This document shows, piece after piece, positions 8,290 through 42,540 of a DNA stretch of 64,000 bases. Position 1 is the stretch's first letter, and each line of letters starts with the position of its first letter. The position numbers were made by a program, and so were the translations under genes. Source of the DNA: Candidatus Campbellbacteria bacterium GW2011_OD1_34_28 (lineage in GTDB: Bacteria; Patescibacteriota; Minisyncoccia; Phycocordibacterales; UBA12079); contig CP011215.1 in NCBI GenBank assembly GCA_001029775.1, positions 32,148-96,147 of the forward strand, written 5' to 3'. The notes under the pieces are model-generated. The model worked only from the letters and a program-made list of their open reading frames with translations, had not been told where the DNA came from and made no database searches.

Positions 8290-8600
8290 TTATACTTGAT
8301 TTTCTGAAGCCCTGCCTCTTCTCTTCCAGGAAAGAGGCAGGGATTCACGAAGTTATTTTGGATTGCTTTGTCGTTTCGTTTCACTCCACTCCTCACAAAG
8401 ACGACGAAGTTGTCGTCTTTGTGAGGAGCTTGCGACGAAGCAATCCACGCCGTCCGTTCGTCGTTCTGGATCGCTTCGCTACCGCTCGCGAAGACGAAGT
8501 TTTGCTCCACAAAACTTCGTGACGAATTTCCGCAGGAAATTCGTCTTTGCGAGCGAAGCGAAGCAATCCACGTCGTTCATTTGTCTTCGTTACTATCGAC
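8290..8600. repeat. GC-rich hairpin-dense intergenic repeat element, copy 2
   Basis: Hairpins ccctgcctct..agaggcaggg, the 17-bp stem ctcctcacaaagacgac-gaagtt-gtcgtctttgtgaggag, gaagttttg..caaaacttc and gacgaatttcc-gcag-ggaaattcgtc, plus the family words gcgaagcaatccacgtcg and tctttgcgag. Confidence 0.6.
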
Positions 8601-11600
8601 TATAAACTATCGACTGTCGTCGTAGCTGTCGGTTCTACCACAGGATCTGTTGTCGTTGCTGGTTCTGTTGTTACAGCTGTTGAATCTTCAACAAGTACTG
8701 TTCTTGTACTTGTTGAAGTATTTGTTCCATCAAACGCTGTGTAAGTAACTGTGTATTCTCCGGCGATTGTTGTGTCTACTATATCTAGGTCGTGAGTATC
8801 TACTATTAGAGAGTTTCCTTGGTAGTCTACTGCTGTAGCGCCTAGATCAATATAGTTGCTGTTTATTTCTACTACGGCTGGGTTGTTGCCTGTGATTGTT
8901 ATAACTGGTGCGATAGCATTCTGGATTGCTTCGCTATCGTTCGCAGAGACGGAAGATGTGTTAGAAGAAGTATCTGTGTTTTCCAACAAACTTCTCAACT
9001 GATCTTTGTTTATACACACATCATCGATACAAATTTCTTGTCTCGCTTTTATTTTATCCGCAACCAATTCTGTAACCGAAGCCAAAACATTTGAAATTCT
9101 TTCATCCAATGTGTTTATCAATTCTTGCATTGCTTTTACAATCACCGAAGTCAATTTTGGATAATCAAGGTTCATGATAGTACCTTTGTCGTCGTGTCCG
9201 ATGACTTCGGGAATTAACAAGTCAACTTCTTCTGCGATGAATCCGATTTGAGTAGATGATGAATTAATAAAGTCTGATTTCCAATTGAATGATACAGGGC
9301 GTAATTGGAGTACTGTGTCTAGACCGTATGTTAGATCGTTTATGTTTGTTTTGAATCTCTCTGATGATGCTCCACAGGCGGTTGTTGATGTGGCTAGTTC
9401 TCCGCTGGTTGATATACAAGCGTAATAACCTGTTCCGTCGTTGGTTAGACCGGTGAAAGCAGCTGTTCCGTTTACGGAAAGAGTTCTCCATGGGGTGGTG
9501 GTGCCGATGCCGACGTTGCCACCGAAATAGTTCGTGCCACCTTGCGAATATATAGAATAATTATTTGAAGATCCTTTATTTGGAGTTTCTATGTATAGCT
9601 GATATTGATTGGCAAGGACACTGGCGCCTCCATTTTCATAATTATTAAGATAGATATTGTAAGCATTCGTCACATTACCAGACGATCCCCAAACGCCAGA
9701 ACCGGCTTCAGAATATATTCCATAGATATTGCCAATGTTAGCGGTGGATCCGGACATAGCTCCGCCATAAGCTGCTACTTTCATACCGTATATATTTGAT
9801 ATATTTGATACTCCTGCATTTTCCAATCCTGAAGCGGCAAAACCACTTGATTCTGTTCCAATTATAGTTGTCACATCTCCATTTCCATAGAAAGTTCCCT
9901 TGTTAACGGATCCCTTAATTTCTTGGGTATCGCCGGAACCATAAACTCTGGCATCAGAAAATGCTCCATAAACCCAATTAATATTACCATTTCCATCATG
10001 ATATGCTGTTGTTCTAATTCCTTGCATTCCTGAACTAGAAAAATTCGTATTATCTCCAAAAGGTGTTGAAATAGCATTATTAATACCAATACCTTGTCCT
10101 TCTTTTTCAATGCTCAGCTTCCCCAACGGACTCATCGTCCCCACACCCACATTCCCATTATTCAACACAGCAAACAAAGAAGTGGTTGCACTCGCTGTAG
10201 AGCTGGCGATATTGAACAAAGTTGTGTTTGTTTCTCCGTTGTTTGCGTGGATTGATAGTTTTGCAAAAGGTGAGGTGGTGCCGATGCCTATTTTGCCACT
10301 TGATAGAGTCGTTCCCGTTCCATTTATTCCTGTTCCAAAAATTAAGTTTCCAATGTTTAATTGATTTGAGGCGGTGGCAGAAGGAGCATCAACATCGTAA
10401 CCTATAACAAGGTTGTTTGATCCTGTTGTTAAATTATTACCTGCTTGGTATCCAAGAAAAATATTATTTGAACCAGAAACCAATGAACCTGCATTGTATC
10501 CAATACCAACACTCCTAGAAGGTGATCCCCCATAAGCCAAGGAATTTATGCCAATAGCGACATTATAACTTCCTGTACTGTTGTTATATAATACTGAATC
10601 TCCTATTCCAACGTTAGAAGCTCCTGTAGTATTTGAATAAAGTGACATATCTCCCACAGCGCTGTTCAATCCGCCTGTTGTATTTGAAACCAAAGATTCT
10701 GTTCCGAGAGCAATATTATAACCTCCGGAAATATTTGCATACAAAGACATTGATCCGCTTGCTATGTTACGAGAACCACCAATATTTGAAAATAAAGCAT
10801 AAGATCCTGAGGCTATATTATTATTTCCAGTCGTATTTGAATAAAGGGATGTGTATCCGCTGGCAACATTGTTGTATCCTTCGGTATTGAAATGCAAAGA
10901 CTTGTACCCAAAAGAAGCATTGAGATAGCCTGTCGTATTTGAATATAGCGACTGATATCCTACCGCTGCGTTTCTATAACCAGAAGTATTTGAACGCAAT
11001 GACTGATAACCAATACCAACATTATAATTATCTGTTAGATCATCACTTCTTCCAGCCTCATATCCAAAATAAGTAGAACCACCCAAACCGGTTTGAGAAA
11101 CCCTTCCATACACGGATAACTTTGCTCCTGCGTTTTCTGAGGTTGTTGTTCCAATACTAACTCTATTATTTACTGAATCAATAACCAGAGTATCTGTATC
11201 AAAAACAGCACTGTCTATTGTCAAATTTGAAATATTTCCGTTAGTAAAGTTTAATTCTGTTCCTGAAACATTTGAGGTGCTAATGTTTGAATCATAAATT
11301 TCAACCCCACCCAAATTATCTATATCGTTGGTAGCAGAGATCACTTGATATGTGTTGGTGATTTGAGCATTTGTATTTGATGAGAGTTTGTAGATTTCAC
11401 TTCTTAATTCGTTGTTTAGTTTTTGAAGATCTTCCAGTGTGACGCCTGGTGTTTGGATTACTCTTTCTACTACGGTTTCTTTTATTATTTCTCTGATTGG
11501 GTTTGTAACGATGGTGGTGGTCTTTGGGGTTGCGGGAACTGAAGGAACATTTTCCGAGATCTCACCTCTGTCCGCTTCGCTCTCCGAGGAAAGACCTCGG

Positions 11601-11869
11601 GAAATTTCGTCTTCGTTTGTGCTATTGGTTGTTAGCTGTCCACTGTCAGCTGTTTCTTCAGCGGAGCTGAAAAAACCCGAGATTGTTCTGTATACATAAA
11701 CAGCCGTCTTTTCAACGGTGTTCAAATTGGAAATATTTTGAACTTCACTCGCTTCAACTTTTTGTAGAAAAAGTAAATTATCATCATTTGCTAGAAAACC
11801 ACCTCCCAACATCAACATAACGGCAAATACGATAAAAAACTGTTTTATAAATTTATCAATAAGATTCAT
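8600..11869 (-). CDS. Giant secreted surface protein 1 (1089 aa), built like a phage tail fibre. Signal anchor, block shared with giant 2, 14-15-aa xNTAxGYxSLxSNTTG repeat array, intramolecular-chaperone (Peptidase S74) domain, coiled coil, DUF5011-type Ig domain, Thr/Pro-rich tail.
   Basis: N-terminal signal MNLIDKFIKQFFIVFAVMLMLGGG. About 20 tandem repeats of the type NAAVGYQSLYSNTTGYLNASFGYKSL. ASSERFKTNINDLTYGLDTVLQLRPVSFNWKSD...IGFIAEEVDLLIPEVI matches the tailspike C-terminal intramolecular-chaperone consensus. ITITGNNPAVVEINSNYIDLGATAVDYQGNSLIVDT...GEYTVTYTAFDG is DUF5011-like. Confidence 0.8.
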   Translation of the reverse strand: MNLIDKFIKQFFIVFAVMLMLGGGFLANDDNLLFLQKVEASEVQNISNLNTVEKTAVYVYRTISGFFSSAEETADSGQLTTNSTNEDEISRGLSSESEADRGEISENVPSVPATPKTTTIVTNPIREIIKETVVERVIQTPGVTLEDLQKLNNELRSEIYKLSSNTNAQITNTYQVISATNDIDNLGGVEIYDSNISTSNVSGTELNFTNGNISNLTIDSAVFDTDTLVIDSVNNRVSIGTTTSENAGAKLSVYGRVSQTGLGGSTYFGYEAGRSDDLTDNYNVGIGYQSLRSNTSGYRNAAVGYQSLYSNTTGYLNASFGYKSLHFNTEGYNNVASGYTSLYSNTTGNNNIASGSYALFSNIGGSRNIASGSMSLYANISGGYNIALGTESLVSNTTGGLNSAVGDMSLYSNTTGASNVGIGDSVLYNNSTGSYNVAIGINSLAYGGSPSRSVGIGYNAGSLVSGSNNIFLGYQAGNNLTTGSNNLVIGYDVDAPSATASNQLNIGNLIFGTGINGTGTTLSSGKIGIGTTSPFAKLSIHANNGETNTTLFNIASSTASATTSLFAVLNNGNVGVGTMSPLGKLSIEKEGQGIGINNAISTPFGDNTNFSSSGMQGIRTTAYHDGNGNINWVYGAFSDARVYGSGDTQEIKGSVNKGTFYGNGDVTTIIGTESSGFAASGLENAGVSNISNIYGMKVAAYGGAMSGSTANIGNIYGIYSEAGSGVWGSSGNVTNAYNIYLNNYENGGASVLANQYQLYIETPNKGSSNNYSIYSQGGTNYFGGNVGIGTTTPWRTLSVNGTAAFTGLTNDGTGYYACISTSGELATSTTACGASSERFKTNINDLTYGLDTVLQLRPVSFNWKSDFINSSSTQIGFIAEEVDLLIPEVIGHDDKGTIMNLDYPKLTSVIVKAMQELINTLDERISNVLASVTELVADKIKARQEICIDDVCINKDQLRSLLENTDTSSNTSSVSANDSEAIQNAIAPVITITGNNPAVVEINSNYIDLGATAVDYQGNSLIVDTHDLDIVDTTIAGEYTVTYTAFDGTNTSTSTRTVLVEDSTAVTTEPATTTDPVVEPTATTTVDSL

Positions 11870-11947
11870 TAATATTTAAAGTTATTATTTAATATTATTA
11901 TAGTAATAATAACACAATAGATAATGAAAAATATTATAAAGACTGTG

Positions 11948-12035
11948 GATTTCTTTCTATTTATATAGACCTGTCAATTTTTTAACCAAAAAATCTGACA
12001 AAGACTTTAAATATTCATCGTCATAAACAAAGACA
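11948..12035. repeat. Duplicated fragment of the obg 3' end and its downstream sequence
   Basis: About 85 bp (tatatagacctgtcaattttttaaccaaaaaatctgacaaagactttaaatattcatcgtcataaaca) nearly identical to 18905-18990 (the obg stop-codon region). Lies between giant genes 1 and 2. Confidence 0.7.
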
Positions 12036-12076: not shown

Positions 12077-15000
12077 CTATTGACTATCAACTACCGGTTC
12101 CGTCGTTGTAGCTACAGAATCTAGACTATCGACTATTGCCTCTTCAACAAGTACTATTCTCGTACTTGTTGAAGTCAGTGTTCCATCAAACGCTGTGTAA
12201 GTAACTGTGTATTCTCCTGCTGTTGTTGTGTCTACTGTATCTGCGTCTATTGTATCTACTATTAGAGAGTTTCCTTGATAGTCTACTGCTGTAGCGCCTA
12301 GATCAATATAGTTGCTGTTTATTTCTACTACGGCTGGGTTGTTGCCTGTGATTGTTATTGTGGGAGGAGTGGTGTTTGAAGGTTCTGCTGTTGGCTGTTG
12401 GCTGTTGGCTGTATTAGTGTTATCAACACCCTCTAAAGCATTCAATCTAGCTTCCAATTCATTCAATCTATTTTCAAGACCAGAAACTTTTGCGATCAAT
12501 TCTTGTGTCTTGTTCCAAATTTCCTTAATCGCATTTACCAAAACCGAAGTCAGCTTTGGATAATCAAGGTTCATGATAGTACCTTTGTCGTCGTGTCCGA
12601 TAACTTCGGGAATTAACAAGTCAACTTCTTCTGCGATGAATCCGATTTGAGTAGATGATGAATTAATAAAGTCTGATTTCCAGTTGAAAGATACAGGGCG
12701 TAGTTGAAGGACTGTGTCTAGACCGTATGTTAGATCGTTGATGTTTGTTTTAAATCTTTCTGACGATGCTCCACAAGCGGTTGTTGATGTGGCTAGTTCT
12801 CCTGTTCCAGCGTTGGCACAGACATAATAGCCAGTGCCGTTGTTAGCAAGACTTTGAAACGCTACTGTTCCATCTACGGTTAGTTTGTAATTTGGAGTAG
12901 TTGAACCGATTCCGATGTTGCCGGTTGAGATGGTTGTGCCGTTTCCATCTATACCTGTCCCAAAGATTAGATTTCCAATTGTCATTGTGTTATTACTTGT
13001 TGCCGTTGGTGAATCAATGTTGTAACCAATAACTATGTTGTTGTCTCCCGTTGTTAAGGTCTCTCCAGCCTGATAGCCAAGTAATATATTATTATCTCCT
13101 GTCGTTAAATTAACCCCAGATCGATACCCAATAATAACACCCCCCTGATTGTAGGATACTGTGCTAACACCTTGACCGGCTTGATAACCGATCGCAACAG
13201 TAGAAGTAGCTGATCCATTATATCGATTTGCCTGAGTACCTATTGCCACATTTGAAGAACCTGTTCGATTACTACGAAGAGATTCAGACCCAATTGAAGT
13301 ATTGTAAGTTCCTGTAGTATTTAAAGACAGCGAATCATATCCGAGAGCGCTATTATAATTTCCTGTGGTGTTATTAGTTAAAGAAAAACCGGCGGCCATA
13401 TTATAAGAACCTGTTGTATTTGCACCCATGCTTAAACCTCCAACGGCTGTATTATAAATTCCTGTTGTATTGACATCCAAGGCACCAGCTCCAACCGCGG
13501 TATTATAATAACCTGTAGTATTGGCTTTCAATGCTTGATAGCCTACAGCAGTATTACTACTACTTGTTGTTGCTAAATAAAGTGCTTCGTAACCCAAAGC
13601 GGTGTTATTTAGAGCACCACTCAACAAAGCGTTTCCTGCTCCAATACCGACAGAAACAGAACGACTGGTTGAAGAGGCAAAAAGTATTTTGCTTCCCCCA
13701 ATAGAATATCCTCCATTTGTTGTATCTGTAGAATTAAATGCTGTTGCAGAAATCGATGAGGTTGCTGTTAAACTATTGACGGTTAAATCACCAGATATCC
13801 ACGCACTACCTTCTACACTCAACTTTCTGAAAGGTGAGGTGGTGCCGATGCCCACATTCCCCTTCAAAGCCGTAGTTGTGATACTGTCATTTCCAAGAAC
13901 AACAGAGTTGCTTCCTACTCCTGTGGCATCGTAACCGATTACAATTTCGTTTTGGTCATTGTCAGCAAGGGCTTTGGTGTTGTAGCCTAAGAATGTATTG
14001 TAGTCTCCTGTTGTGTTACCTGTTGAGCCGTTGGCAATGTAGCGACCTGCATTGTATCCAAAGGCTATATTATAATGACCTGTGGAGTTAGCATAGAGAG
14101 AAGAATAACCAACTGCAGTGTTATACATACCCGTAGAGTTGGCATAAAGAGAAGTGTACCCACTTGCAGTGTTGTATCTGCCTGAAGTGTTTGAAAAGAG
14201 AGATTCATAACCACTTGCAGTGTTGTGATAACCGGAGGTGTTGGACTGAAGAGAAGAATATCCAATCGCGGTGTTGTGATAACCGGTGTTGTTGTTATAC
14301 ATAGAGCTACCACCATAAGCAGTATTACGGTAACCTGTGGTATTAAGGTATAAAGTAAAAATTCCACTTGCGGTGTTACCATAACCAGTATTATTGGTGA
14401 AAAGAGCATTAACACCATTTGCAGTGTTAAAGTAACCTAGAGTATTTGCATAAAGAGCACGGTAACCTGTTGCGGTGTTATAACTGCCATGACTTGCGCT
14501 TGTCGCCGTGCTACCCATCGTAAGATTTCCCGCTTCTTCTCCCACAAAAGTATTCTGTCCTGTTGTCGTCACAGTTCCGTTGTTTCCATAATTGAAATTA
14601 TGAATGAAACTTGTTCCGTTTTTTGAGATTACCCCGTATTGATTTGTATTAGTGGTGTTGTCCAAATTCAAATTACCTTGATAGATATCGAGTTTTGCAG
14701 AAGGAGTCATTGTTCCTATTCCTGTATACCCAGAAGGGCCAGCAAAAAAAGAAATGAAATCTTGAACTCCATCGTTTGTTCCTATTAAAACACTATTGGC
14801 AATATTATTATTTAAAGAACCTCCTCCTGATCCACTATAGCCAAAACCTATAGTAATTGATTTCGTCGCCGAAGCCTTCGCTGTGCCTCCTAAAACAACT
14901 GAATACTGACCGGCAGCTGTTGCCCCTCCTTTTCCAAAAACAGAAGAATACTGCCCACTAGCAATACCTGAACCAACAACAATAGACCCTTCACCTGTTG

Positions 15001-18000
15001 CACTACTACTTTCTCCTAATGCTATGGATTTCCATCCACTTGCAGAACCATTAATCATGGAAACATTAACGCCACCAGAAGAGTTAACCTTAAATCCATT
15101 AGACACTTCTAGTTTGGCTGTCGGACTCGCCGTCCCAATGCCCACATTCCCCGTACTCCTATCCACCACCAATTTGTTTGTTCCCACAGCAAAACCACCA
15201 GCAAAAGTAGAAGTTGCTGTTGTTGAAGTTGCGTTGAAATAGTCGGCAACGACATCTCCGACAACGGAAAGTTTTGCGAAAGGTGAGGTGGTGCCGATGC
15301 CGACATTTCCTCCTAAAAACACCCCTGCATAATTGTTGATTGCTCCTGTAGAAGCATTCACCAATAACCCGTAGGCATTTGTTACTACGGCTTGGCTTGT
15401 GCTCACTGGTTTAGTTGGCACAAGAATACTATAAGCATTTGTAATAGAAACATTTGCACTTGTGCTTTTCCAAGGCCATGCGGTGACTAAACTTGCTGCT
15501 TCTGTAACCACTTGATTTGCAGTAGTGCTATACAGTTGCATATTACCCAATTTAGTTCCGTATATTGTATCGTAAGTCGTTGGATCAGAACCAGATAGAG
15601 TTACAAGATGATCACGCAATGTTATTCCCGTAACGCCCGAAGATGTCAATGTGGTGACGGGATTAATATCAAGAAATGATGCAGGGGCGGTAGTATTGAT
15701 TCCTAAATATCCAGATGAATTTATTCTTGCTCTTTCAAATGTATTAGCTGAACTACTTGTTGTCCAAAAACTAAGGTATCCCTGTGCATTTCCACCGGTC
15801 GAATTTTCCTTTGCTCCTTTTATTGAACCAAAAGTCCAAAAACCAGTTGAACCGGAGTATACACCACCCAATCCGATGCTTCCCCCTTTATTAATCGCGT
15901 TTGTATCAGTAGACATTACAAGCATATTACCGGCATATTGGTCATTGCTACCCAATACTAAATCGCTTCCACGTATATCAAGCGTACGCTGTGGGTTTAT
16001 CGTACCAAGGCCCACAACAGGTGTCGCGAGGTTAATATTTGAAGTCAAGCCATTAACAACCAATCCTGAAAACTGAGGAGAATCAGTCGTTCGCAGACTC
16101 TGGCTCAATGAGACATTGCCACCACTAATTGAGAGATTTCTGACAGTTTCATTTTTAATCCAAGTGGTCCCTATATATATTGAATTTGCTAAAGCAATAT
16201 ACCCGGTCGGAGTTAGATGCAAATAATCAGCGAGAGCATACGAGGCAAGAAGGGTGTCAGGATTGGTTGGATCTTCGAGCGCAGAATAAGCATCTATCCT
16301 ATAGTCAACATCGGATGCCATGTTAAGTATCCAATTATTAACATCTTCTAAAACTACCTGACGAGCTTCCGTCCATGAAGTGCTAGTTTTAAACGGAGTA
16401 ATCGTAACAGCCACAACCTTAGATCCGTTGGCGTTAGCCGCAGTGTACATAGCTTGTAAATTACTTTCAATAGTGGCGGCAGATGCGTTTGCTGCTATAT
16501 CATTTATACCTCCCAGGATAATTACATATTCAGCATCGTCAACTACTACATCACCAGAAAAACGCGCTGCCATTTGTGTAGTAGTATTGCCTCCAACGCC
16601 TTTGCTATTCACATTCCATAATGCCCCCAGTAAATCAGCCAATGCACTTCCATAGTTTGTTAAGCTATCACCTATAGCATATACTTGATGAGTTTGAAGA
16701 ATGTTCACTTTATTCAGAGAAATATCTCCGTTTACATCAAACTTCGCTCCCGGACTCTCCGTCCCCACCCCCACATTCCCTGTAGAATAATCAACAACAA
16801 ATTTGTTTGTTCCAACAGCCAAACCTCCTGCAAATGTAGAAGTTGCTGTGGCTGATGTTGCTGTAAAGTAAGGGGCAGAAATTGAACTTGTGGCAGTAAT
16901 TGAATTAGCGGTTAAATCACCACTGATCCACGCATTACCTTCTACACTCAACTTTCTGAAAGGTGAAGTCGTCCCAATCCCAACATTTCCACTTGCTCTC
17001 CAAACATCTGTTCCGTTGGATGTCCAATTACCAACGGCTGAACCTGATAAAAGATTACCACCCCAGTATAAATCATTGGAGATGTTGTAAAGTCTGTCGG
17101 TTGTGATTGATGGAGCTGATATTGGTGCAAGGTATGTTGCTCCGTTTACTGAAAGAGTATCTGAAGGTGTTGTTGATCCGATGCCTACACGGTTGTTGAT
17201 TGAATCGATGTAAAGAGTGTCTGTGTCAAAGATTGTGTCTCCTGATACGGTAAGAGTGTTTAGAGTGGTGTTGCCTGTTACAGTTAGATTGCCAGAGTAT
17301 GTTCCACTGGTTGCAGAAATAGGGCCACCGTATGTAGAGGTAGCTGTGCCTGTGACAGTTAGGTTTTGAATTGTTCCGTTGGTAAAGCTTAGTTCTGTTC
17401 CTGAGACATTTGAGGAACTGATGTTTGAGTCGGTGATTGTGACACTACCCAGATTGTCGATGTTGTTAGTAGCAGAGATTACTTGGTAGGTGTTGGTGAT
17501 TTGAGCATTTGTATTTGAAGAGAGTTTGTAGATTTCACTTCTCAGTTCGTTGTTTAGTTTTTGAAGATCTTCCAGTGTGATGCCGGATGTTTGGATTACT
17601 CTTTCTACAACAACTTCTTTGATTATTTCTCTGATTGGGTTTGTAACGATGGTGGTGGTCTTTGGAGTTGCGGGAACTGAAGGAACATTTTCCGAGATCT
17701 CGCCTCTGTCCGCTTCGCTCTCCGAGGAAAGACCTCGAGAAATTTCGTCTTCGTTTGTGCTATTGGTTGTTAGCTGTCCGCTGTCAGCTTCGTCAACGCT
17801 ATCAGCTGTTGGCTGTAAGCTATCAGCTTCGTTACTAAACAAATTATTAACAAACTTATACCAAACAATCGCAAACTGTTCCACAGGACTTGCTGTTTCG
17901 TAGACTGCTAAAGCTAGGTTGTTTACACCCGTCTTCGCGAACGAAGTGAAGCGACCTGCCTCGCCGGCAGGCAGGTCCATGTCGTCCGTTTTCTGGATTG

Positions 18001-18541
18001 CTTCGTCATAAACTCCTCGCAAAGACGACGAACCAGAGACAATTTTGTTTTTTAATCCATCTAAATAATCTAAAAAGTCTTGTGTATATGTATCTACTGT
18101 TTTTACATTTTTACTGTCTTTTATTTCTTTGATGGGAGAATTGTCATTGCTATCAAGAATTTGTGTTTTGAACAAATCTCTTTTTTCTGCACCAACTTTG
18201 TATGTTATTTCTTTTGTGTTTTTTACCGCAGAAAAAACAGCCTCCCCTGTTTTGTTGAGTTGGTTTAATATGTCTCCTGAAAAGTAACCTGCTCCGATTA
18301 AGAGAATCGCTAAAACAGCCGTTGACAATGCTCTCACTGGCAAAATCATCGGCTTGTTTGTTTTGTTTTTATATTCAAAAAGTTTTTCTAATTCAACAAA
18401 ATATTCCCCTTCTACCTTTGTAAAATCTATCTTTTCTTCACGGCACAGGTCTTTAATATGTTCTTCATCCAATTCTATGATTTTTGTCGCTTTTTTTGTT
18501 GAAAGATACCTTTTGCCATTTAAAAATATCTCACTTTGCAT
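12077..18541 (-). CDS. Giant surface protein 2 (about 2150 aa). N-terminal HTH-like cytoplasmic segment plus TM anchor, block shared with giant 1, repeat arrays, embedded SGNH/GDSL esterase domain, tail-fibre NTA-GY repeats, Peptidase S74 intramolecular chaperone domain, coiled coil, DUF5011 Ig domain.
   Basis: Track ORF is 12077..18589; the preferred start is MQSEIFLNGKRYLS (18541). TM segment LSTAVLAILLIGAGYF. A 110-aa block (ADSGQLTTNSTNEDEISRGL...NAQITNTYQVISATN) is nearly identical to giant 1. The SGNH motifs are AIGDSLT, GGNTT, GINDI and DYLHLT. The C-terminal 230 aa are nearly identical to giant 1. Confidence 0.8.
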   Translation of the reverse strand: MQSEIFLNGKRYLSTKKATKIIELDEEHIKDLCREEKIDFTKVEGEYFVELEKLFEYKNKTNKPMILPVRALSTAVLAILLIGAGYFSGDILNQLNKTGEAVFSAVKNTKEITYKVGAEKRDLFKTQILDSNDNSPIKEIKDSKNVKTVDTYTQDFLDYLDGLKNKIVSGSSSLRGVYDEAIQKTDDMDLPAGEAGRFTSFAKTGVNNLALAVYETASPVEQFAIVWYKFVNNLFSNEADSLQPTADSVDEADSGQLTTNSTNEDEISRGLSSESEADRGEISENVPSVPATPKTTTIVTNPIREIIKEVVVERVIQTSGITLEDLQKLNNELRSEIYKLSSNTNAQITNTYQVISATNNIDNLGSVTITDSNISSSNVSGTELSFTNGTIQNLTVTGTATSTYGGPISATSGTYSGNLTVTGNTTLNTLTVSGDTIFDTDTLYIDSINNRVGIGSTTPSDTLSVNGATYLAPISAPSITTDRLYNISNDLYWGGNLLSGSAVGNWTSNGTDVWRASGNVGIGTTSPFRKLSVEGNAWISGDLTANSITATSSISAPYFTATSATATSTFAGGLAVGTNKFVVDYSTGNVGVGTESPGAKFDVNGDISLNKVNILQTHQVYAIGDSLTNYGSALADLLGALWNVNSKGVGGNTTTQMAARFSGDVVVDDAEYVIILGGINDIAANASAATIESNLQAMYTAANANGSKVVAVTITPFKTSTSWTEARQVVLEDVNNWILNMASDVDYRIDAYSALEDPTNPDTLLASYALADYLHLTPTGYIALANSIYIGTTWIKNETVRNLSISGGNVSLSQSLRTTDSPQFSGLVVNGLTSNINLATPVVGLGTINPQRTLDIRGSDLVLGSNDQYAGNMLVMSTDTNAINKGGSIGLGGVYSGSTGFWTFGSIKGAKENSTGGNAQGYLSFWTTSSSANTFERARINSSGYLGINTTAPASFLDINPVTTLTSSGVTGITLRDHLVTLSGSDPTTYDTIYGTKLGNMQLYSTTANQVVTEAASLVTAWPWKSTSANVSITNAYSILVPTKPVSTSQAVVTNAYGLLVNASTGAINNYAGVFLGGNVGIGTTSPFAKLSVVGDVVADYFNATSTTATSTFAGGFAVGTNKLVVDRSTGNVGIGTASPTAKLEVSNGFKVNSSGGVNVSMINGSASGWKSIALGESSSATGEGSIVVGSGIASGQYSSVFGKGGATAAGQYSVVLGGTAKASATKSITIGFGYSGSGGGSLNNNIANSVLIGTNDGVQDFISFFAGPSGYTGIGTMTPSAKLDIYQGNLNLDNTTNTNQYGVISKNGTSFIHNFNYGNNGTVTTTGQNTFVGEEAGNLTMGSTATSASHGSYNTATGYRALYANTLGYFNTANGVNALFTNNTGYGNTASGIFTLYLNTTGYRNTAYGGSSMYNNNTGYHNTAIGYSSLQSNTSGYHNTASGYESLFSNTSGRYNTASGYTSLYANSTGMYNTAVGYSSLYANSTGHYNIAFGYNAGRYIANGSTGNTTGDYNTFLGYNTKALADNDQNEIVIGYDATGVGSNSVVLGNDSITTTALKGNVGIGTTSPFRKLSVEGSAWISGDLTVNSLTATSSISATAFNSTDTTNGGYSIGGSKILFASSTSRSVSVGIGAGNALLSGALNNTALGYEALYLATTSSSNTAVGYQALKANTTGYYNTAVGAGALDVNTTGIYNTAVGGLSMGANTTGSYNMAAGFSLTNNTTGNYNSALGYDSLSLNTTGTYNTSIGSESLRSNRTGSSNVAIGTQANRYNGSATSTVAIGYQAGQGVSTVSYNQGGVIIGYRSGVNLTTGDNNILLGYQAGETLTTGDNNIVIGYNIDSPTATSNNTMTIGNLIFGTGIDGNGTTISTGNIGIGSTTPNYKLTVDGTVAFQSLANNGTGYYVCANAGTGELATSTTACGASSERFKTNINDLTYGLDTVLQLRPVSFNWKSDFINSSSTQIGFIAEEVDLLIPEVIGHDDKGTIMNLDYPKLTSVLVNAIKEIWNKTQELIAKVSGLENRLNELEARLNALEGVDNTNTANSQQPTAEPSNTTPPTITITGNNPAVVEINSNYIDLGATAVDYQGNSLIVDTIDADTVDTTTAGEYTVTYTAFDGTLTSTSTRIVLVEEAIVDSLDSVATTTEPVVDSQ
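17925..18045. repeat. GC-rich repeat element, copy 3, embedded in-frame inside giant gene 2
   Basis: cttcgcgaacgaagtgaagcgacctgcctcgccggcaggcaggtc...ggattgcttcg...tcgcaaagacgacgaa shares the gacctgcc..ggcaggtc hairpin and family words with copy 4. It is translated as ...DDMDLPAGEAGRFTSFAKTG... with no stop. Confidence 0.55.
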
Positions 18542-18639
18542 ATTTATCTTTAGCCAAATTATACCAATAATTAAGGCTAATTTAAACAAAAAAGGGTGCG
18601 TAAGTGTTGATAAATAAATTGAAGCTTATAGCTCTATAG

Positions 18640-18895: not shown

Positions 18896-18899
18896 GTCT

Positions 18900-22495: not shown

Positions 22496-25400
22496 TTATC
22501 TACCGCGAATATCTCCAACCCAACCAAATATATCTTCAACATTTGACATAATTACCTGGAATACAGACTCTCTGTGTCTAGGAGTAAGGATTGTATAAAC
22601 TTTTGACAAACTTACATTTCCTCCAGAGTCGGTGCTTTCTACCCTAAAGCTGTAAACTGTTCCTAGATCAAACGAAGTAATTACAACCACGTGTTTCTTC
22701 GTATATGTGCTGTCTAATTTTGTCATATTGGCTAGTGGTTTGTCCATACCAATAATTCCTTTTTGGTAATAAACTTGACTTGTTGAAGGTTCGTTAGTTA
22801 ACCAAGTGATGATGCTTTGAATTTTACTTTCTTTACCTGTAGAAATAGCTGAATCTGTCTTTACGGAATAAATCAAAGGAGGGAGGTCATCTTCTGATGT
22901 AGAAAAAGTAGGAATCTTTTTGCTTGTGATAGAACCGTCTACACCCTTGCTGGTCAATTCAACATCATAAAATACTCCTGCTTCCAAATTGTCCAATTCA
23001 ATTTCGTGAATAAAACTATTTCTTTTATCCGAAATTGTTGTTGTTTCCTCGATAGAAAGAGTATTATTTCTGTACGGTGTATATCGAACAGTTCCATCTG
23101 CCTCTACGTTTGTAACCCACTGAAAGACAACTGATTCGTTTGAATTTTTCTTTATTGTATAAGAAGAAATTTCCAATTCTTCAGATCTTGTTTTGAAAGT
23201 AAAGTCAGGAGAGTACCCGATTGTTCCTACAGAGGCTTTGCTTCTTACTTGATAATGATAATTCGTCTCTGGTTCCAAATCATAAATCATTACTGTGTGA
23301 TCTGTTGTGCTTGTAGAATTTCCACCTATTACCTGTACATATCCCATCTCATCAGAATTTGTTCCTTTGAAATCTTTTTCCTGAGCAATCGCAACAAAAG
23401 AACCCGCTGGCTTGTCAGTTCTCCAAGAGATGGTTGCTGTCTTGGCTGTTGTCACAACCTTTGGTTCTCCGCTCATAAGAGGTGCAGAGATTCTTGTAGA
23501 CAAATATTCCAAATTAGTAAACTGTTCTGAAACTGTTGTCTCCAAAGTTCCAAGAGAAACTTGAGAAGAAATCTTGAGAGCCAATCCCATTGCCTGTCGC
23601 ACAGTAGAAACAAACAATTCATCCAATTCTTCTGCTGTCATTGTCTTTGACAAAGAGTCATCGCCTTCATTATTTTTTTCCAACTGATCAACAAACGATA
23701 TTGTCTCAAAACTCTTCTCTGGAGAACGATAAACATTTCCGAAAGAATCATTTCCTGCAACCTTAAAGAAATATGTTTTTTCTGGAAGAAGATAATTCAA
23801 ATTTACTTCGTGAATATTACCCATGCTGAGACTTCCTATCGTCGTTCCATAACTATTTGTCAAACCGTACTCGACAAAACCATTAGCGCTTTCATCAGTT
23901 TTCCATCTAATTTTTGCCGAAGTATCTGTTATATTCAAAATTTCTATATCTGAAAATCCTGGAGCCGTAACATCTGCATCACTTTGTCTTCTACTTACAG
24001 CGGCGCCCTGTCTAGCTGCCAATTCTCTTGCCAAAACTTCCGACTCTAAAGAAAGTTCTTCTAGGGTTGTAAAATCTGCTTCATCAGAAACAACACTGTT
24101 TCCATTAGCATCTGAGGAATAAACCCTGTAATAATATTTTGTGCTGGTTGCTAAGTTGATAAGGGCAACTGTGTGATCACGGTTATAATTGACCGCCAAA
24201 GAAGTACTTGTCGCATAATCGCTTATGTCATTACCACTTTCTGGACCAAAATAAACTCTCGCATTTGCATCTTCGTCAGTCGTCCACTGAATAATAGCAG
24301 TCGTATCTGAAATAGAAGAACTATCCGGACCTGTTGTTATAGTCGGAGAGGTTGTATCATTGTTTGTTGTAAAACTATAATAATCTCCAGAAAAATTGTC
24401 TAATGCAATATTACCTTCAGCATCAACAGACTTAACATAGAAATAATAGGTTGTTGCCTGATCCAACCCTGTAATATCTGCAGAGTGCGCAGTTGTAAGA
24501 TTAACTGAACCTTGAAATTCTGAGGAAACACTAAGATCGGGGTTAAGAGAATAAACAACAGCAGTATCAGCAAGAATGTCAGTATTCCAAACTATTGTTA
24601 CCATATTATTATCTACATGAGAAACAAGAACATCAGAAATCACCGCTCCTGGATTTGTTGTAAATGTATATCCTGGACCATCGTTATCGTCAGTATCTGA
24701 ATTTCCTGACAAGTCGGAAGACATTGCTTGGAAATAATATGTTGTATCTGGTGTTAACCCAGTAAGAAAAATTTGGTGCTGTCCGATACCGCTTTCTGAA
24801 TCTGCCATGGTTGAAACACCGACTTCGCCAGAAAATTGATATGGGATTGTTGAATAACCCACAGTTGAACGAGATACCTCGTCAGTATCCCAAGTTACCA
24901 CTGCACTCTGTGTTGTAACTGATCCAACAGAAACATTAGAAATGGTCGGAGGAACATTGTCTCCACCTCCCTGTCCATCAGCGAGTTCGCTCACTTCACT
25001 TGAATAATATGATGATGTACCGTAAGTGTCTTCTGTTGAAATCTTGTAATAATAAGTTGTGGATGTTGCAATTCCGCTATGTACATAATAGTTTGTTGTA
25101 CGAACATTTACTCTATCTAACAAAGAATAGTCGGTTCCGTTTGTAGAAGACCAAATATTGTATCTTCTGAAATTTGTGATATTTGTCGTCGCAGGTTTCC
25201 ATGCCAAAAACATATAGTAACTTCCTGTTACATAGTTTGCGACATCATACGCTTGTAAATTCAAAGCTGTTTCCATTGTCTCAACAGATGCACTAACAGT
25301 ATTTCCCAAAGCATCTCTAAATTGAACATAGGCAATGTCAGGGTCAGTCTCGAGAGTAATTGTGGAAGAACTTTGGTAAGCTTCCCAAGCACCATCGCTA

Positions 25401-28400
25401 TAGTCCGACGCCAATCCGATCTTCATTTCAATAGAATTATCGTCTGACACATCAAAATTTAATGTAGCAGGAGATGTTGTTGCTGTTACAGTAACATAAG
25501 TAGAAGATGTTGCAGGATCTTTTGTATCCAAACTAAACGATGAAGATGTCACGGTCTGACTATTTGATGAACAGGAAGAAACCAATCTTATCTGCATCGT
25601 TTCATTATATGTTCCGTCGTAGTCAATTTTTGCATCCCAAATAATTTGTTTAGCGGTGCTAGAAGAAACACCAGTTCCATAATCACCAGACAAACTGGTT
25701 GCATCCAGCCAACTTGCACCATCCCAATATTTTAACGAAACACTTGATACAGCAGAGCATCCTTCATAAATAGAATAATCATAACCAACGATTACTTTTC
25801 CTAAAGTTCCCGAATCTGTTGATTGAGAAGATGTCAAATTTGAAATTGCAACAGTCGTCAGATTAAAATCGGCTGTCATAGAGCTCGCTATATTATTGGC
25901 AGCTTCGTTGTCGTTTACGGTCACTCTAATTTTTGCTGTAGTTGTTGAAGTATCCAAACCTATCTGTAACTGAGGATCCCATGTCATCGTATAAGTTGAA
26001 TAGCTGGCCTCATCTACTGCTTTGTTGTCAGTAGATGTAGCATTCATTCCGGCTGTTATGTTACCCCATGTCGAACCACCATCAAGAGAATATTCAAATG
26101 AAGGTGTTAATTCATTTGGACTATTTGTTCCTGTGGTTGAGTCTATGTCTCTAACAGAATAAACAATTTCAACAATTCCATCTGTTCTTTGTACTGCAGT
26201 GGCTTCACTTTGGAAATCAGGAGTTTCGTTCACTACATATTCAAGACCCGCGCTAGTTACCATCGGCACAGCACCGTTATCAGATTCCAATGTTATTTTG
26301 TATTGCATCCATTGATCGGCCGTCATATCGGTAAATTCTGTTGAAACATCCGTAATACTGCAGACAATGTCTGTTCCTGTTTTTACACAACTTCCCACAT
26401 CACTTTGAAAAAAACCTCCATCTACATCATCATCTCCTAAAAAGTTCGACGCTGTGTCTGTGTCAGGGGCAGGTCCGTCTGTAGAGGTAGCAGTTCTCAA
26501 CTGAAACTTGACTGCAGTTCCAGCAGGCAAAGATTCGTTCTCGGACCAATTTATTTTTGAAACAATATTTACGATATCATTACTGTTATACCAGCTTGAA
26601 AGAAGTGTCCCTGTTGTAGTTGTGTAATTTATATAATTAAAAGAAATATCTTGTAGTTGAGGCGTTACAGAAATATCTGTGGTTGAAAAAACAACCTGAT
26701 ATTGAATATATTGATCGGTGTTGTTAACACAACTAGAAGCAGACGCAATATCCGTGATGCCTTTATCACTTCGACTGAAAGCGGGACAACTAGAAATGGC
26801 GGTTTCCCCCGAACAAGAAGCATCGTCGCAAGTTCTAACTTTTATTTGTAAATCTGTATCAGTCAAAATAGAGCCAGATTCATTTTCTGTCCAATCGATT
26901 GTTGTTAAACCTGTGTTAGCTCCCAAATTTTGAATATCTGATGTATATACACCCGAAGATTCATACTCAACCACGATGTTCAGTGAAGAAGTGTTTGCCG
27001 TCGGAGCAGTAGTTCCAGAAATATTACTAGATTTCACATGGATGCGTCCTACACCTCCATCCCCACCATCAACACTTCCACAATCATCACTTGTACCATC
27101 ACCCGCTCCACCAGAAGCCGTAACATGTGAAGCCGTGCCAAGAACTACGGAATTACCTGTCAGATAAATAGATCCTCCCGATCCGCCCCCGTTAGGAGAG
27201 GTGTGCAAAGTCGGACTTGTTCCATTGCTGACAATGTTTCCAACGGAGGAATTTATAGAACCTGCACCAATATACACTATACCACCACCATCTCCACCAG
27301 TATCTCCAAAATTGGCAGCCGTACCTCCTGCGCTTCCAAGATAAAATTTGCTTAAATCTGCAATTCCATAAATAGATCCTCCAACAGCAGGAGCCATCCC
27401 TTGTCCTACAGCTCCATATCCTCCACCTGCACCAGTTGCAATAAAACAAAAAGGATCATCTAAATAATATGCCCCACCTCCTCCAAGATTAGCACTCGTA
27501 GAAACTGCACCTAGTTTACTATATGATTCTCCTTGCACAGCAGTAACAGCAGATCCCCTAAATCCTTTTCCTGTCATATTAATACTTCCGCCACTTCCAA
27601 CTGTTACAGCACCACTCGCCAAAAACGCCAATACTCCACCTTTGGATCCATTCCAATCGCTGGCTGTCAAAACACCTCCCGAAATTGTTAGGTCGGTATA
27701 ACGAGGAACTCTTTGCAACATCACTCTTTGGTTTGTTGTTGCTGTTCCTATGTTGGTATCGTCGGAATCAGTACCGTCTCCATAATATTTTGTTTTGTTG
27801 CTAGCGAAAGTAACTGTATTTGAAGAAACAGACAGTACTTCAAAGATTTCATAATTTCCAACATTTCCATAGTTTGAGGCTGTTCCTTGCAAATTTATTA
27901 ATAAAACAGAATCTCCTGCGGATAAACAGCCAGCGGAAGGAGATGTTGACAAAGTAGCCGTGTTTGAAGAAAGTGCTGTAGCACTATAAGAAACTCCGTC
28001 TCCTCCATCGGCACAACTTCTTCCACTTGCAAGAGTATCAGTATTTATATTTACAGTTCCGCTAGAAATAGTAACGCTACCGTCTGCGTAAGTTCCTTCG
28101 GGAATTTCTTCCAACTCAATGCTTCCTGCGGTTTGAGTTCTGCTTGTACTGCTATCTGTCCCACCAGAAAAATCGGTATCAGTATGAGTGTCTTCTGCTT
28201 TGTCTATTCTATTAAAATTAATTGTTGCAGAAGATAGCGCAGATGTCTGCGATAAATCCGACGATGCACCAAAAGTCACTTTGTATTGAACATATCTATT
28301 TCCATCTGTAACACAAGGATCGCTAGATATATCATTTCCACTTGTAATATTTGAACAGCTTGTCCAATTATTAGCACCAGCCATATCTGTACTAGTTCCT

Positions 28401-29182
28401 GTTCTCACTTTCACAGTAAGAGTCGAGTTGGAAGGAACAGAAGAACTGAAAACTAGTGTTCCAAAATTTGCGTTTCCTAAAGTATCATAAACAGGAGAAG
28501 TATAAGTTCCGGTGCTGTAATAACTTCCGCCATTCAAACTTAGTTGAACAGAACCAGAAGTACCACTTCCACTTGTTCCTGTTTGAGAATTTGTTCCTGC
28601 GTCAAAATCTGTGTCGGTTGTTTGTGTCCATGAAGCTGCAGCAGTTGCAAGAGTAACACCGTCAGAAGAAGTAACAACACCAGTTGATGAATCAAAACTT
28701 GTAACCGTTGGAGTCGGAGAAGAGTGTGTAACATAAGTTCCGGGACTAGCAGAAGCATCCCAATCAGTTTGTGTCCATGAATAAGTGGCGGCATACGCTC
28801 TTGGAGCAGGTCCTAAAGATAAATTTAGTACAGAAACCATTAACAATAGAACCAAAGTAGAAGATAAAATTTGAGGAATAGTTTTTTTAATTTTTTTGAT
28901 ACTAAAAATATCTTTCAAAAACAAAAAAACAACATCTCTCATGCGAGGACTCTCATCTTTTATATATACAGCTCTGCTAGCTTCTTCTTTTACAAGTTCT
29001 AAAAAAGATTTTTCAACATACATTTTTCCTTTTACAGTTTTTGTATTTATTTCTTTGTCATAACAAAAACTGACTATGTATTCTTTTTTATAGCCTGTTA
29101 AATCTGAAGCCCTTTCCAGAGAAATATACTTTTGTACTTTTGATACAATTTCTTTATGCTTCATCACACTAAATGATAACAT
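22496..29182 (-). CDS. Giant surface protein 3 (2228 aa). N-terminal HTH-like segment plus TM anchor, Gly-rich beta-helix-like region, multiple fibronectin type III domains.
   Basis: N-terminus YISLERASDLTGYKKEYIVSFCYDKEINTKTVKGKMYV, then TM IPQILSSTLVLLLMVSVLNLSLG. Gly-rich segments (GGGGAYY, GGDGGGIVYIGAGS, GGGSGGSIYLTGNS). At least five FN3-like units (for example PPTISNVSVGSVTTQSAVVTWDTDE..., SPTITTGPDSSSISDTTAIIQWTTDE..., APGFSDIEILNITDTSAKIRWKTDE...). Confidence 0.8.
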   Translation of the reverse strand: MLSFSVMKHKEIVSKVQKYISLERASDLTGYKKEYIVSFCYDKEINTKTVKGKMYVEKSFLELVKEEASRAVYIKDESPRMRDVVFLFLKDIFSIKKIKKTIPQILSSTLVLLLMVSVLNLSLGPAPRAYAATYSWTQTDWDASASPGTYVTHSSPTPTVTSFDSSTGVVTSSDGVTLATAAASWTQTTDTDFDAGTNSQTGTSGSGTSGSVQLSLNGGSYYSTGTYTSPVYDTLGNANFGTLVFSSSVPSNSTLTVKVRTGTSTDMAGANNWTSCSNITSGNDISSDPCVTDGNRYVQYKVTFGASSDLSQTSALSSATINFNRIDKAEDTHTDTDFSGGTDSSTSRTQTAGSIELEEIPEGTYADGSVTISSGTVNINTDTLASGRSCADGGDGVSYSATALSSNTATLSTSPSAGCLSAGDSVLLINLQGTASNYGNVGNYEIFEVLSVSSNTVTFASNKTKYYGDGTDSDDTNIGTATTNQRVMLQRVPRYTDLTISGGVLTASDWNGSKGGVLAFLASGAVTVGSGGSINMTGKGFRGSAVTAVQGESYSKLGAVSTSANLGGGGAYYLDDPFCFIATGAGGGYGAVGQGMAPAVGGSIYGIADLSKFYLGSAGGTAANFGDTGGDGGGIVYIGAGSINSSVGNIVSNGTSPTLHTSPNGGGSGGSIYLTGNSVVLGTASHVTASGGAGDGTSDDCGSVDGGDGGVGRIHVKSSNISGTTAPTANTSSLNIVVEYESSGVYTSDIQNLGANTGLTTIDWTENESGSILTDTDLQIKVRTCDDASCSGETAISSCPAFSRSDKGITDIASASSCVNNTDQYIQYQVVFSTTDISVTPQLQDISFNYINYTTTTGTLLSSWYNSNDIVNIVSKINWSENESLPAGTAVKFQLRTATSTDGPAPDTDTASNFLGDDDVDGGFFQSDVGSCVKTGTDIVCSITDVSTEFTDMTADQWMQYKITLESDNGAVPMVTSAGLEYVVNETPDFQSEATAVQRTDGIVEIVYSVRDIDSTTGTNSPNELTPSFEYSLDGGSTWGNITAGMNATSTDNKAVDEASYSTYTMTWDPQLQIGLDTSTTTAKIRVTVNDNEAANNIASSMTADFNLTTVAISNLTSSQSTDSGTLGKVIVGYDYSIYEGCSAVSSVSLKYWDGASWLDATSLSGDYGTGVSSSTAKQIIWDAKIDYDGTYNETMQIRLVSSCSSNSQTVTSSSFSLDTKDPATSSTYVTVTATTSPATLNFDVSDDNSIEMKIGLASDYSDGAWEAYQSSSTITLETDPDIAYVQFRDALGNTVSASVETMETALNLQAYDVANYVTGSYYMFLAWKPATTNITNFRRYNIWSSTNGTDYSLLDRVNVRTTNYYVHSGIATSTTYYYKISTEDTYGTSSYYSSEVSELADGQGGGDNVPPTISNVSVGSVTTQSAVVTWDTDEVSRSTVGYSTIPYQFSGEVGVSTMADSESGIGQHQIFLTGLTPDTTYYFQAMSSDLSGNSDTDDNDGPGYTFTTNPGAVISDVLVSHVDNNMVTIVWNTDILADTAVVYSLNPDLSVSSEFQGSVNLTTAHSADITGLDQATTYYFYVKSVDAEGNIALDNFSGDYYSFTTNNDTTSPTITTGPDSSSISDTTAIIQWTTDEDANARVYFGPESGNDISDYATSTSLAVNYNRDHTVALINLATSTKYYYRVYSSDANGNSVVSDEADFTTLEELSLESEVLARELAARQGAAVSRRQSDADVTAPGFSDIEILNITDTSAKIRWKTDESANGFVEYGLTNSYGTTIGSLSMGNIHEVNLNYLLPEKTYFFKVAGNDSFGNVYRSPEKSFETISFVDQLEKNNEGDDSLSKTMTAEELDELFVSTVRQAMGLALKISSQVSLGTLETTVSEQFTNLEYLSTRISAPLMSGEPKVVTTAKTATISWRTDKPAGSFVAIAQEKDFKGTNSDEMGYVQVIGGNSTSTTDHTVMIYDLEPETNYHYQVRSKASVGTIGYSPDFTFKTRSEELEISSYTIKKNSNESVVFQWVTNVEADGTVRYTPYRNNTLSIEETTTISDKRNSFIHEIELDNLEAGVFYDVELTSKGVDGSITSKKIPTFSTSEDDLPPLIYSVKTDSAISTGKESKIQSIITWLTNEPSTSQVYYQKGIIGMDKPLANMTKLDSTYTKKHVVVITSFDLGTVYSFRVESTDSGGNVSLSKVYTILTPRHRESVFQVIMSNVEDIFGWVGDIRGR

Positions 29183-42539: not shown

Positions 42540-42540
42540 A

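Follow-up and report, generated by a model that had tools for sequence, protein, structure and literature searches.

The DNA analyzed here is a 64-kb stretch of a low-GC (~35%) Candidatus Campbellbacteria genome (candidate phyla radiation [CPR]/Patescibacteria), hereafter the window, with 637 open reading frames (ORFs). Two of its genes, giant 2 and giant 3, are predicted to place an excisionase-type helix-turn-helix (HTH) domain at the N-terminus of a membrane-anchored protein, with ~2,100 amino acids (aa) of extracellular-type domains C-terminal to the transmembrane (TM) helix. Giant 2 lies on the reverse strand at 12077..18541 (2,154 aa, ATG at 18541; N-terminus MQSEIFLNGKRYLSTKKATKIIELDEEHIKDLCREEKIDFTKVEGEYFVELEKL) and is made up of the HTH, the TM helix, a variable stalk, and a fiber; its ectodomain contains a GDSL lipase, YadA-head/YadA-like repeats, Peptidase_S74, and an immunoglobulin (Ig)-like domain. 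Giant 3, also on the reverse strand, occupies 22496..29164 (2,222 aa counted from MKHK; the sequence includes KYISLERASDLTGYKKEYIVSFCYDKEINTKTVKGKMYVEKSFLEL) and is laid out as HTH, linker, TM helix, and an ectodomain rich in fn3/Pur_ac_phosph_N, with seven Pur_ac_phosph_N/fn3 repeats. Its longest ORF begins at 29182. The start codon is probably the second ATG, at 29164, because the gene model of the ortholog P0004 begins at this codon and a relative has GTG in place of the upstream ATG. This ortholog is 83–100% identical to giant 3 per 60-aa window, and the same gene order was found in the related locus L086. Residues ~439–730 of giant 3, a Gly-rich, β-helix-like region, show a weak, sub-threshold likeness to the N-terminal domain of the Myxococcus gliding-motility protein AgmC (NF047640; 71 bits, cutoff 275).

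The N-terminal domains were delimited as a winged HTH of the divergent HTH_17 type in giant 2 (18353..18541, reverse strand, residues 1–63) and a winged HTH of 64 aa counted from MKHK in giant 3 (28973..29164, reverse strand). The original prediction had named an N-terminal segment shared by the two proteins and quoted a peptide from each. Both peptides are present in the window: that of giant 2 corresponds to residues 9–54 (18380–18517, reverse strand) and is enclosed by the range given for it (18330–18541, residues 1–70), and that of giant 3 (KYISL...FLEL) was located at 28994–29131. The range given for the latter, 29040–29182, stops at codon 47 of the longest ORF, ~46 nucleotides (nt) before the 3' end of the peptide. 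The sharing of the segment was reproduced by pairwise BLASTP (27% identity over 49 aa, E = 1e-5).

A single TM helix follows in giant 2 (MILPVRALSTAVLAILLIGAGYF; 18281..18349, reverse strand, residues 65–87, Kyte-Doolittle peak 2.1). In giant 3, the TM core (ILSSTLVLLLMVSVLNLSL; 28814..28870, reverse strand, residues 99–117 from MKHK) is preceded by KKIKK. Lysines and arginines in the 15 flanking residues number four on the N-terminal side versus one on the C-terminal side in giant 2, and five versus one in giant 3. From the positive-inside rule and the extracellular-type domain content, we infer an N-in (type-II) topology with cytoplasmic N-domains for both proteins, in agreement with the single TM helix, huge outer region, and cytoplasmic HTH originally proposed. 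Directly C-terminal to the giant 3 TM helix, the sequence GPAPRAYA|AT resembles a signal-peptidase site, and the ectodomain might be released by cleavage there.

The N-terminus of giant 2 is also found, identical, at the end of the public draft contig LBQI01000001.1, as an 83-aa "hypothetical protein UR74_C0001G0328". In that contig, an 8-bp tandem duplication (AGCCGATG) just past the HTH domain shifts the frame of giant 2 and yields the 83-aa ORF; the duplication site corresponds to window positions 18340–18350 and to L001:10240-10252, and the draft contig ends 150 nt later. The window and the orthologs P0002 and P0003 are without the duplication, and giant 2 is in frame throughout. An assembly artifact joining a small ORF to giant 2 was rejected, as the same in-frame fusion occurs in both orthologs. 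Since the window lacks the duplication and two orthologs read through, the fusion of HTH and giant 2 is, on these sequences, genuine. A signal-peptide extension of the ESPR-like kind was likewise rejected; the N-terminal segment is a folded 60-aa domain with a family of its own.

Fold of the N-terminal domains

In direct scans, Pfam HTH_17 (PF12728) matched giant 2 with 15.1 bits against a cutoff of 27, with profile positions 1–49 of 51 aligned, and gave no match to the N-domain of giant 3. The NCBIfam scan of the full-length giants 2 and 3 returned no match for a TIGR01764-type domain, the PDB sequence search with a two-sequence profile returned nothing significant, and a word-indexed protein search with both N-termini recovered only the 83-aa fragment of the draft genome. 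An exhaustive profile search was run with the two window domains as the query against 1.84 billion cluster representatives, and 1,770 representatives were matched at E ≤ 1e-3 (363 at E ≤ 1e-10). Sampled homologs scored 31.1–37.7 bits on HTH_17 (gathering score 27), and one reached 37.9 on TIGR01764 "excise" (cutoff 28.8). A family profile of 98 domains, from which the window sequences were left out, gave giant 2 48.6 bits and giant 3 39.1 bits; the next of the 637 window ORFs scored ~5 bits. The excisionase/MerR-type assignment made at the outset is thereby borne out through the homologs, which pass the Pfam and TIGR01764 cutoffs, while giants 2 and 3 themselves stay below threshold or unmatched in Pfam. 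Sub-threshold Pfam matches in CPR giants can be rescued by family-specific profile searches.

AlphaFold2 models (57-row alignment) have a β-β-α-α-β-β-α order in both domains and the winged-helix fold, with a predicted local distance difference test score of 87.6 for giant 2 and 88–91 over residues 11–60 for giant 3. Against the PDB, the best Foldseek matches of giant 2 were Xis, BldC, and the RdfS excisionase, and those of giant 3 were TraN, pSK1 Par, RacA, and Xis; the Xis proteins in the best set overall are those of mycobacteriophage Pukovnik and Tn916, and the set also includes GlnR (entries 4j2n, 6amk, 8dgl, 1y6u, 4p0z, 5i44). Probabilities reached 0.98, with TM-scores of 0.6–0.7 and root mean square deviations of 1.4–2 Å; all E-values exceed 0.09, as is usual for so small a domain (~50 residues). 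Profiles and models together indicate that both N-domains are genuine but divergent winged HTH_17 domains of the excisionase/MerR type.

The same family includes, transitively by profile, the excisionases Tn916 Xis, Pukovnik Xis, RdfS, and TorI (PF12728, TIGR01764), which have the same β-α-α-β-β winged-helix fold and oligomerize on direct repeats. Excisionases differ in being small and soluble and in acting with a recombinase on a mobile element, whereas the giants carry a fused TM helix and giant ectodomain, have no integrase nearby, and show reduced wing-tip arginines. No integrase, recombinase, or mobile-element setting was found near giants 2 and 3. The genes around them encode Obg, a MacB-type ABC transporter, a dehydrogenase, and a protein with a VTT domain, and the corresponding neighbors in related loci are GatB, SecA, and Wzy_C. 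Pfam MerR had no match in giants 2 and 3, where a linker and TM helix, not a MerR coiled coil or effector domain, follow the HTH. Trans_reg_C, the winged HTH of OmpR/PhoB type, had no Pfam match either, the domain being HTH_17.

The family and its two-gene module

Most of the best family members are small proteins. Two tandem domain copies (approximately residues 1–63 and 78–140) were present in 146 of the 149 best representatives. The small protein is ~320 aa long and consists of two tandem HTHs, a ~100-aa linker, one TM helix, and an external tail of ~50 aa. Exactly one TM helix, at about residue 230–300, was predicted in nearly all full-length best representatives (median tail 51 residues), and lysine and arginine were richer on its N-terminal side in 118 proteins versus on its C-terminal side in 6. 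Pfam scans of the small proteins matched only HTH_17, with no XRE-type HTH_25 or DUF4115. Giants with the family head were also found among the representatives (P0022, 1,699 aa; P0145, 3,878 aa), both with Peptidase_S74. The full-length small protein has matches in at least 970 clusters, and the only names these bear are "hypothetical" and "helix-turn-helix domain-containing".

The recognition-helix pattern DY[IV]GQL[AC]R[SKE], taken from eight canonical domains, was searched for in 185,579 species genomes and gave 419 confirmed loci. Of the best 80, nearly all are titled Patescibacteria (Kaiser-, Nomura-, and Yonathbacteria, Paceibacterota, Parcubacteria, Minisyncoccia). Some are third-party annotation assemblies labeled "uncultured Saccharibacteria", a label that could not be confirmed, and a few bear generic titles ("uncultured bacterium") with the same locus layout. 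By this distribution, the family is restricted to Patescibacteria and found mainly in Paceibacteria.

The small tandem-HTH gene was present in 60 of the fetched loci, 51 of which had at least 1.5 kb of downstream sequence. In 47 of the 51 (92%), it is followed on the same strand, after a gap of 24–899 nt, by a gene with one N-terminal family HTH; the loci were fetched by the recognition-helix pattern of the small protein, so these adjacency figures are conditional on the small gene being present. The downstream gene usually has a TM helix 50–250 residues past the HTH. Ten of the 14 complete ones encode 1,316–2,673 aa, incomplete ones reach at least 2,865 aa, and further HTH-giants are present in some loci. 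Genes with an N-domain, a TM helix, and a giant ectodomain, for which a search of other genomes had been suggested, thus recur in related Paceibacteria. A conserved charged helix lies C-terminal to the HTH in giants. The stalk-base motif TNPIREIIKE..VERVIQTSGITLEDLQKLNNELRSEIY of giant 2 is common to the canonical Paceibacteria HTH-giants; the consensus of this extracellular region in giant 2 and the canonical giants is NPV/IxEr..vER....gGITe..L..L..L...IY.

Upstream of the module, the related loci (L002, L006–L085) keep a common gene order over long distances throughout Paceibacteria: Wzy_C/TPR, (MurB), SecA, (Obg), and GatB, then the small gene and the giant. GatB was present in 76 of the loci, whereas the counts for SecA and Wzy_C were 58 and 45. 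The window retains Wzy_C, MurB, and SecA (38627–44760), and giant 2 is in the conserved position, as Obg stands immediately before it. No gatB and no small tandem-HTH gene were found in the 64-kb window, in which only two ORFs match the domain profile. The synteny of the window (38627–44760 and 18900–19910) is broken by ~9 kb of glycolytic and other genes together with giant 3 and the MacB-type ABC transporter.

Mobile elements were observed beside the module in other genomes: ORFs for IS200-like Y1 transposases of the RAYT type lie near it in 13 loci (including L047:3742-4497), and in many loci the small gene is bordered by CCGAGATAC/GTATCTCGG repeats able to form hairpins. Such elements may represent systems of repetitive extragenic palindromic (REP) sequences and their RAYT transposases.

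Family-specific promoter box and HTH-less giant 1

The spacer between small gene and giant is strongly conserved toward its 3' end, with the consensus TTATCC[AC]CA ... GATnTCnACAGGATATCCGAAATAnCTAGTAAAATnCTAGATAAnTCG..ATG. The sequence TATCC[AC]CA occurs 2.4 times per kb in these spacers versus 0.07 times per kb elsewhere in the same loci (34-fold). Within 130 nt upstream, on the coding strand, the core ATCC[AC]CA was found for 60 of 92 giant-class genes (65%) and 30 of 56 small genes (54%). Among other genes the count was 15 of 468 (3%; odds ratio 47, p = 8e-52, a value that is optimistic and overstates independence because the loci come from related genomes).

The position of the box is fixed. 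It starts 45–46 nt before CTAGTAAAAT in giant genes, which is 50 nt before a TAAAAT hexamer, and ~50 nt before a TATACT/TATAAT hexamer in small genes, where the hexamer is 7–10 nt from the ATG; the canonical spacing of the core to the -10-like hexamer is 49 nt (about 49–50). Extra in-phase boxes were seen at +23 in 14 and at +34 in 23 of 39 loci, with ~2 expected from shuffles. The box often takes the form of 2–4 direct repeats ~11.5 nt apart, with four repeats in a few promoters. The architecture is kept in the most divergent lineages fetched and was seen across the related loci L006–L085 (e.g., L015:9904-10000, L034:11498-11594). In giants, the box is followed by a conserved CTAGTAAAAT(n)CTAGATAAnTCG leader. 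An RNA element at this leader, or at the palindrome around CTAGTAAAAT, was considered and rejected: 71.7% of cells pair, covariation was within that of shuffles (the observed value was attained in 88 of 500), and Rfam gave no match to the conserved leader/palindrome. On these two grounds, the palindrome/-10-like element is treated as acting at the DNA level.

In the window, upstream of giant 2, a degenerate box TTATCAACA (18605..18613, reverse strand; core ATCAACA, one mismatch) stands at the canonical spacing, 49–50 nt before TATAAT (18558–18563). An exact ATCCACA at -159 of the same gene was rejected as a positioned box, as it belongs to a REP-like repeat. Giant 3 has TTCCACAG upstream at a non-canonical spacing, where a relative has TTCCCCAG, the A/C alternative of the canonical box. 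The canonical form, AATCCACAG (11943..11951, reverse strand), was found upstream of giant 1, with ATCCACA starting 48 nt before TATAAT.

Giant 1 (8600..11869, reverse strand) is a paralog of giant 2 with the shared stalk and C-terminal modules, in which a plain N-terminal TM helix of its own takes the place of the HTH and TM head. Repeats D2–D4 are common to giants 1 and 2, and D9, a 78-nt copy of the 3' end of Obg (94% identical), lies upstream of giant 1 at 11958–12035. The shared repeats and the Obg copy lead to the conclusion, from sequence comparison, that giant 1 arose by tandem segmental duplication of giant 2 (8600–12076 versus 12077–18978). In the relative L086, Obg is followed only by the HTH-less form, a gene of the giant 1 type.

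These HTH-less genes bear on the suggestion, made in the original prediction, that the N-domain is a docking domain for export. As an aid to export or targeting, the N-domain would dock long signal-anchored proteins to Sec, possibly independently of the signal recognition particle (SRP). Such a role would fit the synteny of the locus with secA, the invariable position of the domain directly N-terminal to the signal anchor, and the 2015 report of Parcubacteria without the SRP genes ffh and ffs (PMC4508563). Giant 1 and the L086 gene are, however, fibers of the same kind without an HTH, which makes an essential export role unlikely and weakens the docking suggestion; the small protein has two HTHs but exports only ~51 residues, and the synteny with secA and gatB also takes in unrelated housekeeping genes. 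An export function is therefore regarded as highly improbable.

Several GC-rich modules resembling REP sequences or miniature inverted-repeat transposable elements (MITEs), with the core GCTTCGCTACGCTCGCAATGAC, are scattered around these genes. They were located at 8412–8574, 17757–17833, 17994–18029, and 18650–18770; besides intergenic copies, there are copies in frame within giant 2 residues ~171–261, in the hypervariable stalk, which are common to giant 1; the in-frame modules encode peptides such as ADSGQLTTNSTNEDE. One copy lengthens the apparent N-terminus of the adenylate kinase ORF (7662–8510).

Two further features of the window were recorded. A long gene cluster of the surface-glycan/teichoic-acid type, with GC down to ~28%, lies on the reverse strand at 44845–62643 and holds genes for a Polysacc_synt flippase, a radical SAM/SPASM protein, several methyltransferases, a cytidylyltransferase, Glyphos_transf, a pyruvyl transferase, and GT4 glycosyltransferases. 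An 86-aa Cys-rich ORF with several CxxC-like pairs (30994–31254, reverse strand), to which Pfam gave no match, is flanked by the genes for enolase and 2-hydroxyacid dehydrogenase.

Domain classes and the role of the tethered HTH

Alignment to a single profile separates the domains into three classes: copy 1 of the small protein (consensus GYaQDYIGQLAR.G.IdA.RvGGLWYv), copy 2 (TGY.qDYvGQLARsGkilsrQvGnRWYV..HK.EKD), and the giants ((L/F/V)tRDY.aRLcr.gk..Grr.GknWYV). Among 167 sampled domains, D27, Y28, L32, and W47 are invariant or within one exception. Position 31 in helix 2 is class-specific, with Q in small proteins and R in giants, and the recognition helix is otherwise nearly invariant. The corresponding residues are L24, E27, H28, K30, D31, L32, R34, and Y47 in giant 2 and Y24, E27, Y28, V30, S31, F32, Y34, and M47 in giant 3. 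By these residues, giants 2 and 3 are fringe members of the family, which keep the fold but not the putative ligand-reading face.

Both an HTH profile match and conservation of the segment in orthologs were found: the N-domain and TM helix of giant 2 are 93–97% identical to those of its orthologs, whereas identity in the fiber bodies falls to 13–30%. This difference argues that the N-domain/TM module is under constraint (purifying selection). It also bears on the idea that both window N-domains are decaying, functionless remnants of a canonical system. The loss of family invariants, the missing small partner gene in the window, and the existence of HTH-less paralogs are what a relic would leave, but the module is among the best-conserved parts of giant 2 across orthologs, the fold is confidently predicted, and the residues have mostly been exchanged for similar ones (D to E, W to Y, L to F). 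We consider a relic very unlikely. The sequence comparisons point instead to weakened or re-purposed handles under purifying selection, which are more likely than sequence-specific regulators in the case of the window copies.

The HTH_17 domain is known already, and so are membrane-tethered HTH proteins, among them ToxR, CadC, and RodZ. In the literature searched, on HTH_17 in Patescibacteria, on CPR giant proteins with an HTH, and on membrane-tethered excisionase-type HTHs, no account was found of the family, of a fusion of HTH_17 to a giant fiber, of a tandem-HTH partner, or of the promoter box.

For the proposed binding, precedent comes from BldC of Streptomyces, a lone MerR-like winged HTH that binds direct repeats as a head-to-tail multimer (PMC5859096): phased direct repeats are the type of site bound in this way by lone Xis/MerR-like winged HTHs. 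BldC, which was also a top structural match, shares with the family a lone winged HTH without the MerR coiled coil and a variable number of direct repeats at promoters. It differs in being a soluble protein of 68 aa with a repeat unit of ~9 bp (AATTxxxxC), whereas the family is membrane-tethered, with repeats of ~11.5 bp (TATCCnCA), and its binding is putative only. For the architecture, the closest systems are the membrane-bound one-component regulators with a co-component, ToxR/ToxS, TcpP/TcpH, VtrA/VtrC, and CadC (PMC9214523). ToxR, TcpP, VtrA, and CadC have an N-terminal cytoplasmic winged HTH, a single TM helix, an external domain, and an adjacent partner membrane protein. The likeness is one of architecture only, as these regulators have an OmpR-type winged HTH and small periplasmic sensor domains, whereas the family has HTH_17, a fiber ectodomain of 1,300–2,900 aa, and a partner that itself carries two HTHs.

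On the strength of sequence and analogy, membrane-tethered DNA binding with autoregulation is the leading explanation for the family as a whole, at slightly short of an even call. The canonical HTHs would line up head-to-tail on the direct-repeat boxes, as Xis and BldC do, either while tethered to the membrane or after (proteolytic) release. The family would thereby autoregulate, and the state of the fiber could feed back on transcription; the small tandem-HTH protein would be a co-component, as in the ToxR/TcpP-type regulators. The window would represent a derived state of the system, with no small partner, the invariants replaced, residue 31 changed, and the box intact upstream of giant 1 but altered by one mismatch upstream of giant 2. 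The same role is less likely for the copies in giants 2 and 3, because these look degenerate. The family-specific promoter box lends indirect support to the suggestion, made at the outset, of a membrane-tethered regulator module.

Several observations weigh against tethered autoregulation. Most family invariants are lost in the window copies (D27 and W47 in both copies, in addition Y28 of giant 2 and L32 of giant 3). The domains are not markedly basic, with a median isoelectric point (pI) of 6.1 for copy 1, 9.1 for copy 2, and 7.9 for giants; the giant 2 domain is slightly acidic (pI 5.8), and the wing-tip arginines of excisionases are largely absent from copy 1. Giant 1 keeps the box without any HTH, so box and HTH are uncoupled locally. 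The box could be recognized by an alternative sigma or some other factor. Since all family genes are paralogs, common descent and not convergence could account for part of the shared promoter. The relatedness of the loci and their retrieval by the small gene, given above with the respective figures, count on the same side.

An HTH fold in this position could also serve as a handle for proteins. The HTH of RodZ binds a protein, MreB, and RodZ resembles the small protein in being bitopic, ~330 aa long, with an N-terminal cytoplasmic HTH, a TM helix, and an external tail; its HTH is of the XRE type, its TM helix is close to the HTH, and it has a DUF4115 domain. By analogy, the family HTH would bind a cytoplasmic protein and anchor or organize the base of the fiber. 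Candidate partners are other fiber subunits, the tandem HTHs of the small protein, and a protein of the cytoskeleton or of cell division. This would account for the near-neutral net charge and the lost wing arginines, for three co-evolving classes (copy 1, copy 2, and giant) encoded side by side, for the conserved charged helix past the HTH in giants, and for window copies that keep the fold without the putative DNA-reading residues, yet are conserved at the level given above. It leaves the family-specific direct-repeat box unexplained, and helix 2 exposes residues (D-Y-x-x-Q/R-x-x-R) like those of a surface that reads DNA. A protein handle is possible, if rather unlikely, as the general function of the family.

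DNA binding without gene regulation would be a further use of the same fold. RacA has a MerR/Xis-like winged HTH and tethers DNA to the membrane via a partner protein, and TraN, like the small protein, has two tandem excisionase-like domains; both differ in being soluble, and RacA binds palindromes as a coiled-coil dimer. As RacA-like architectural binders of low specificity, the family proteins would attach the chromosome or the transcribed locus to the membrane under the fibers. The structural matches include RacA, Xis, TraN, and pSK1 Par, there are several paralogs per cell and two HTHs in the small protein, and a recognition helix invariant over hundreds of species would suit a universal ligand. 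The domains, however, are not strongly basic, and boxes at fixed promoter positions of family genes only are a regulatory pattern; a nucleoid-membrane tether thus appears quite unlikely.

Within tethered autoregulation, a more specific form can be considered. In a dedicated contact-sensing circuit of Paceibacteria, the HTH of the host-facing fiber and the adjacent tandem-HTH co-component would bind the phased ATCC[AC]CA repeats at the fiber-gene promoters, and fiber load or attachment would be passed on to transcription, directly or by Notch-like proteolytic release of the HTH. This version is speculative and, taken by itself, unlikely. If true, it would be a one-polypeptide adhesin-to-promoter pathway, undescribed in bacteria.

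For CPR/Patescibacteria, which are thought to live attached to hosts, the findings bear on how attachment is sensed and how huge surface proteins are controlled. The analysis yields a family of at least 970 members, a conserved two-gene module, and a DNA box with fixed promoter geometry, and giants 1, 2, and 3 are natural HTH-less or degenerate variants that provide built-in controls. Binding of the box by the HTHs would make this the first proposed circuit in these organisms that physically links a surface fiber to its own promoter; without such binding, the family would be a new case of an HTH fold put to use as a handle for proteins close to the membrane.

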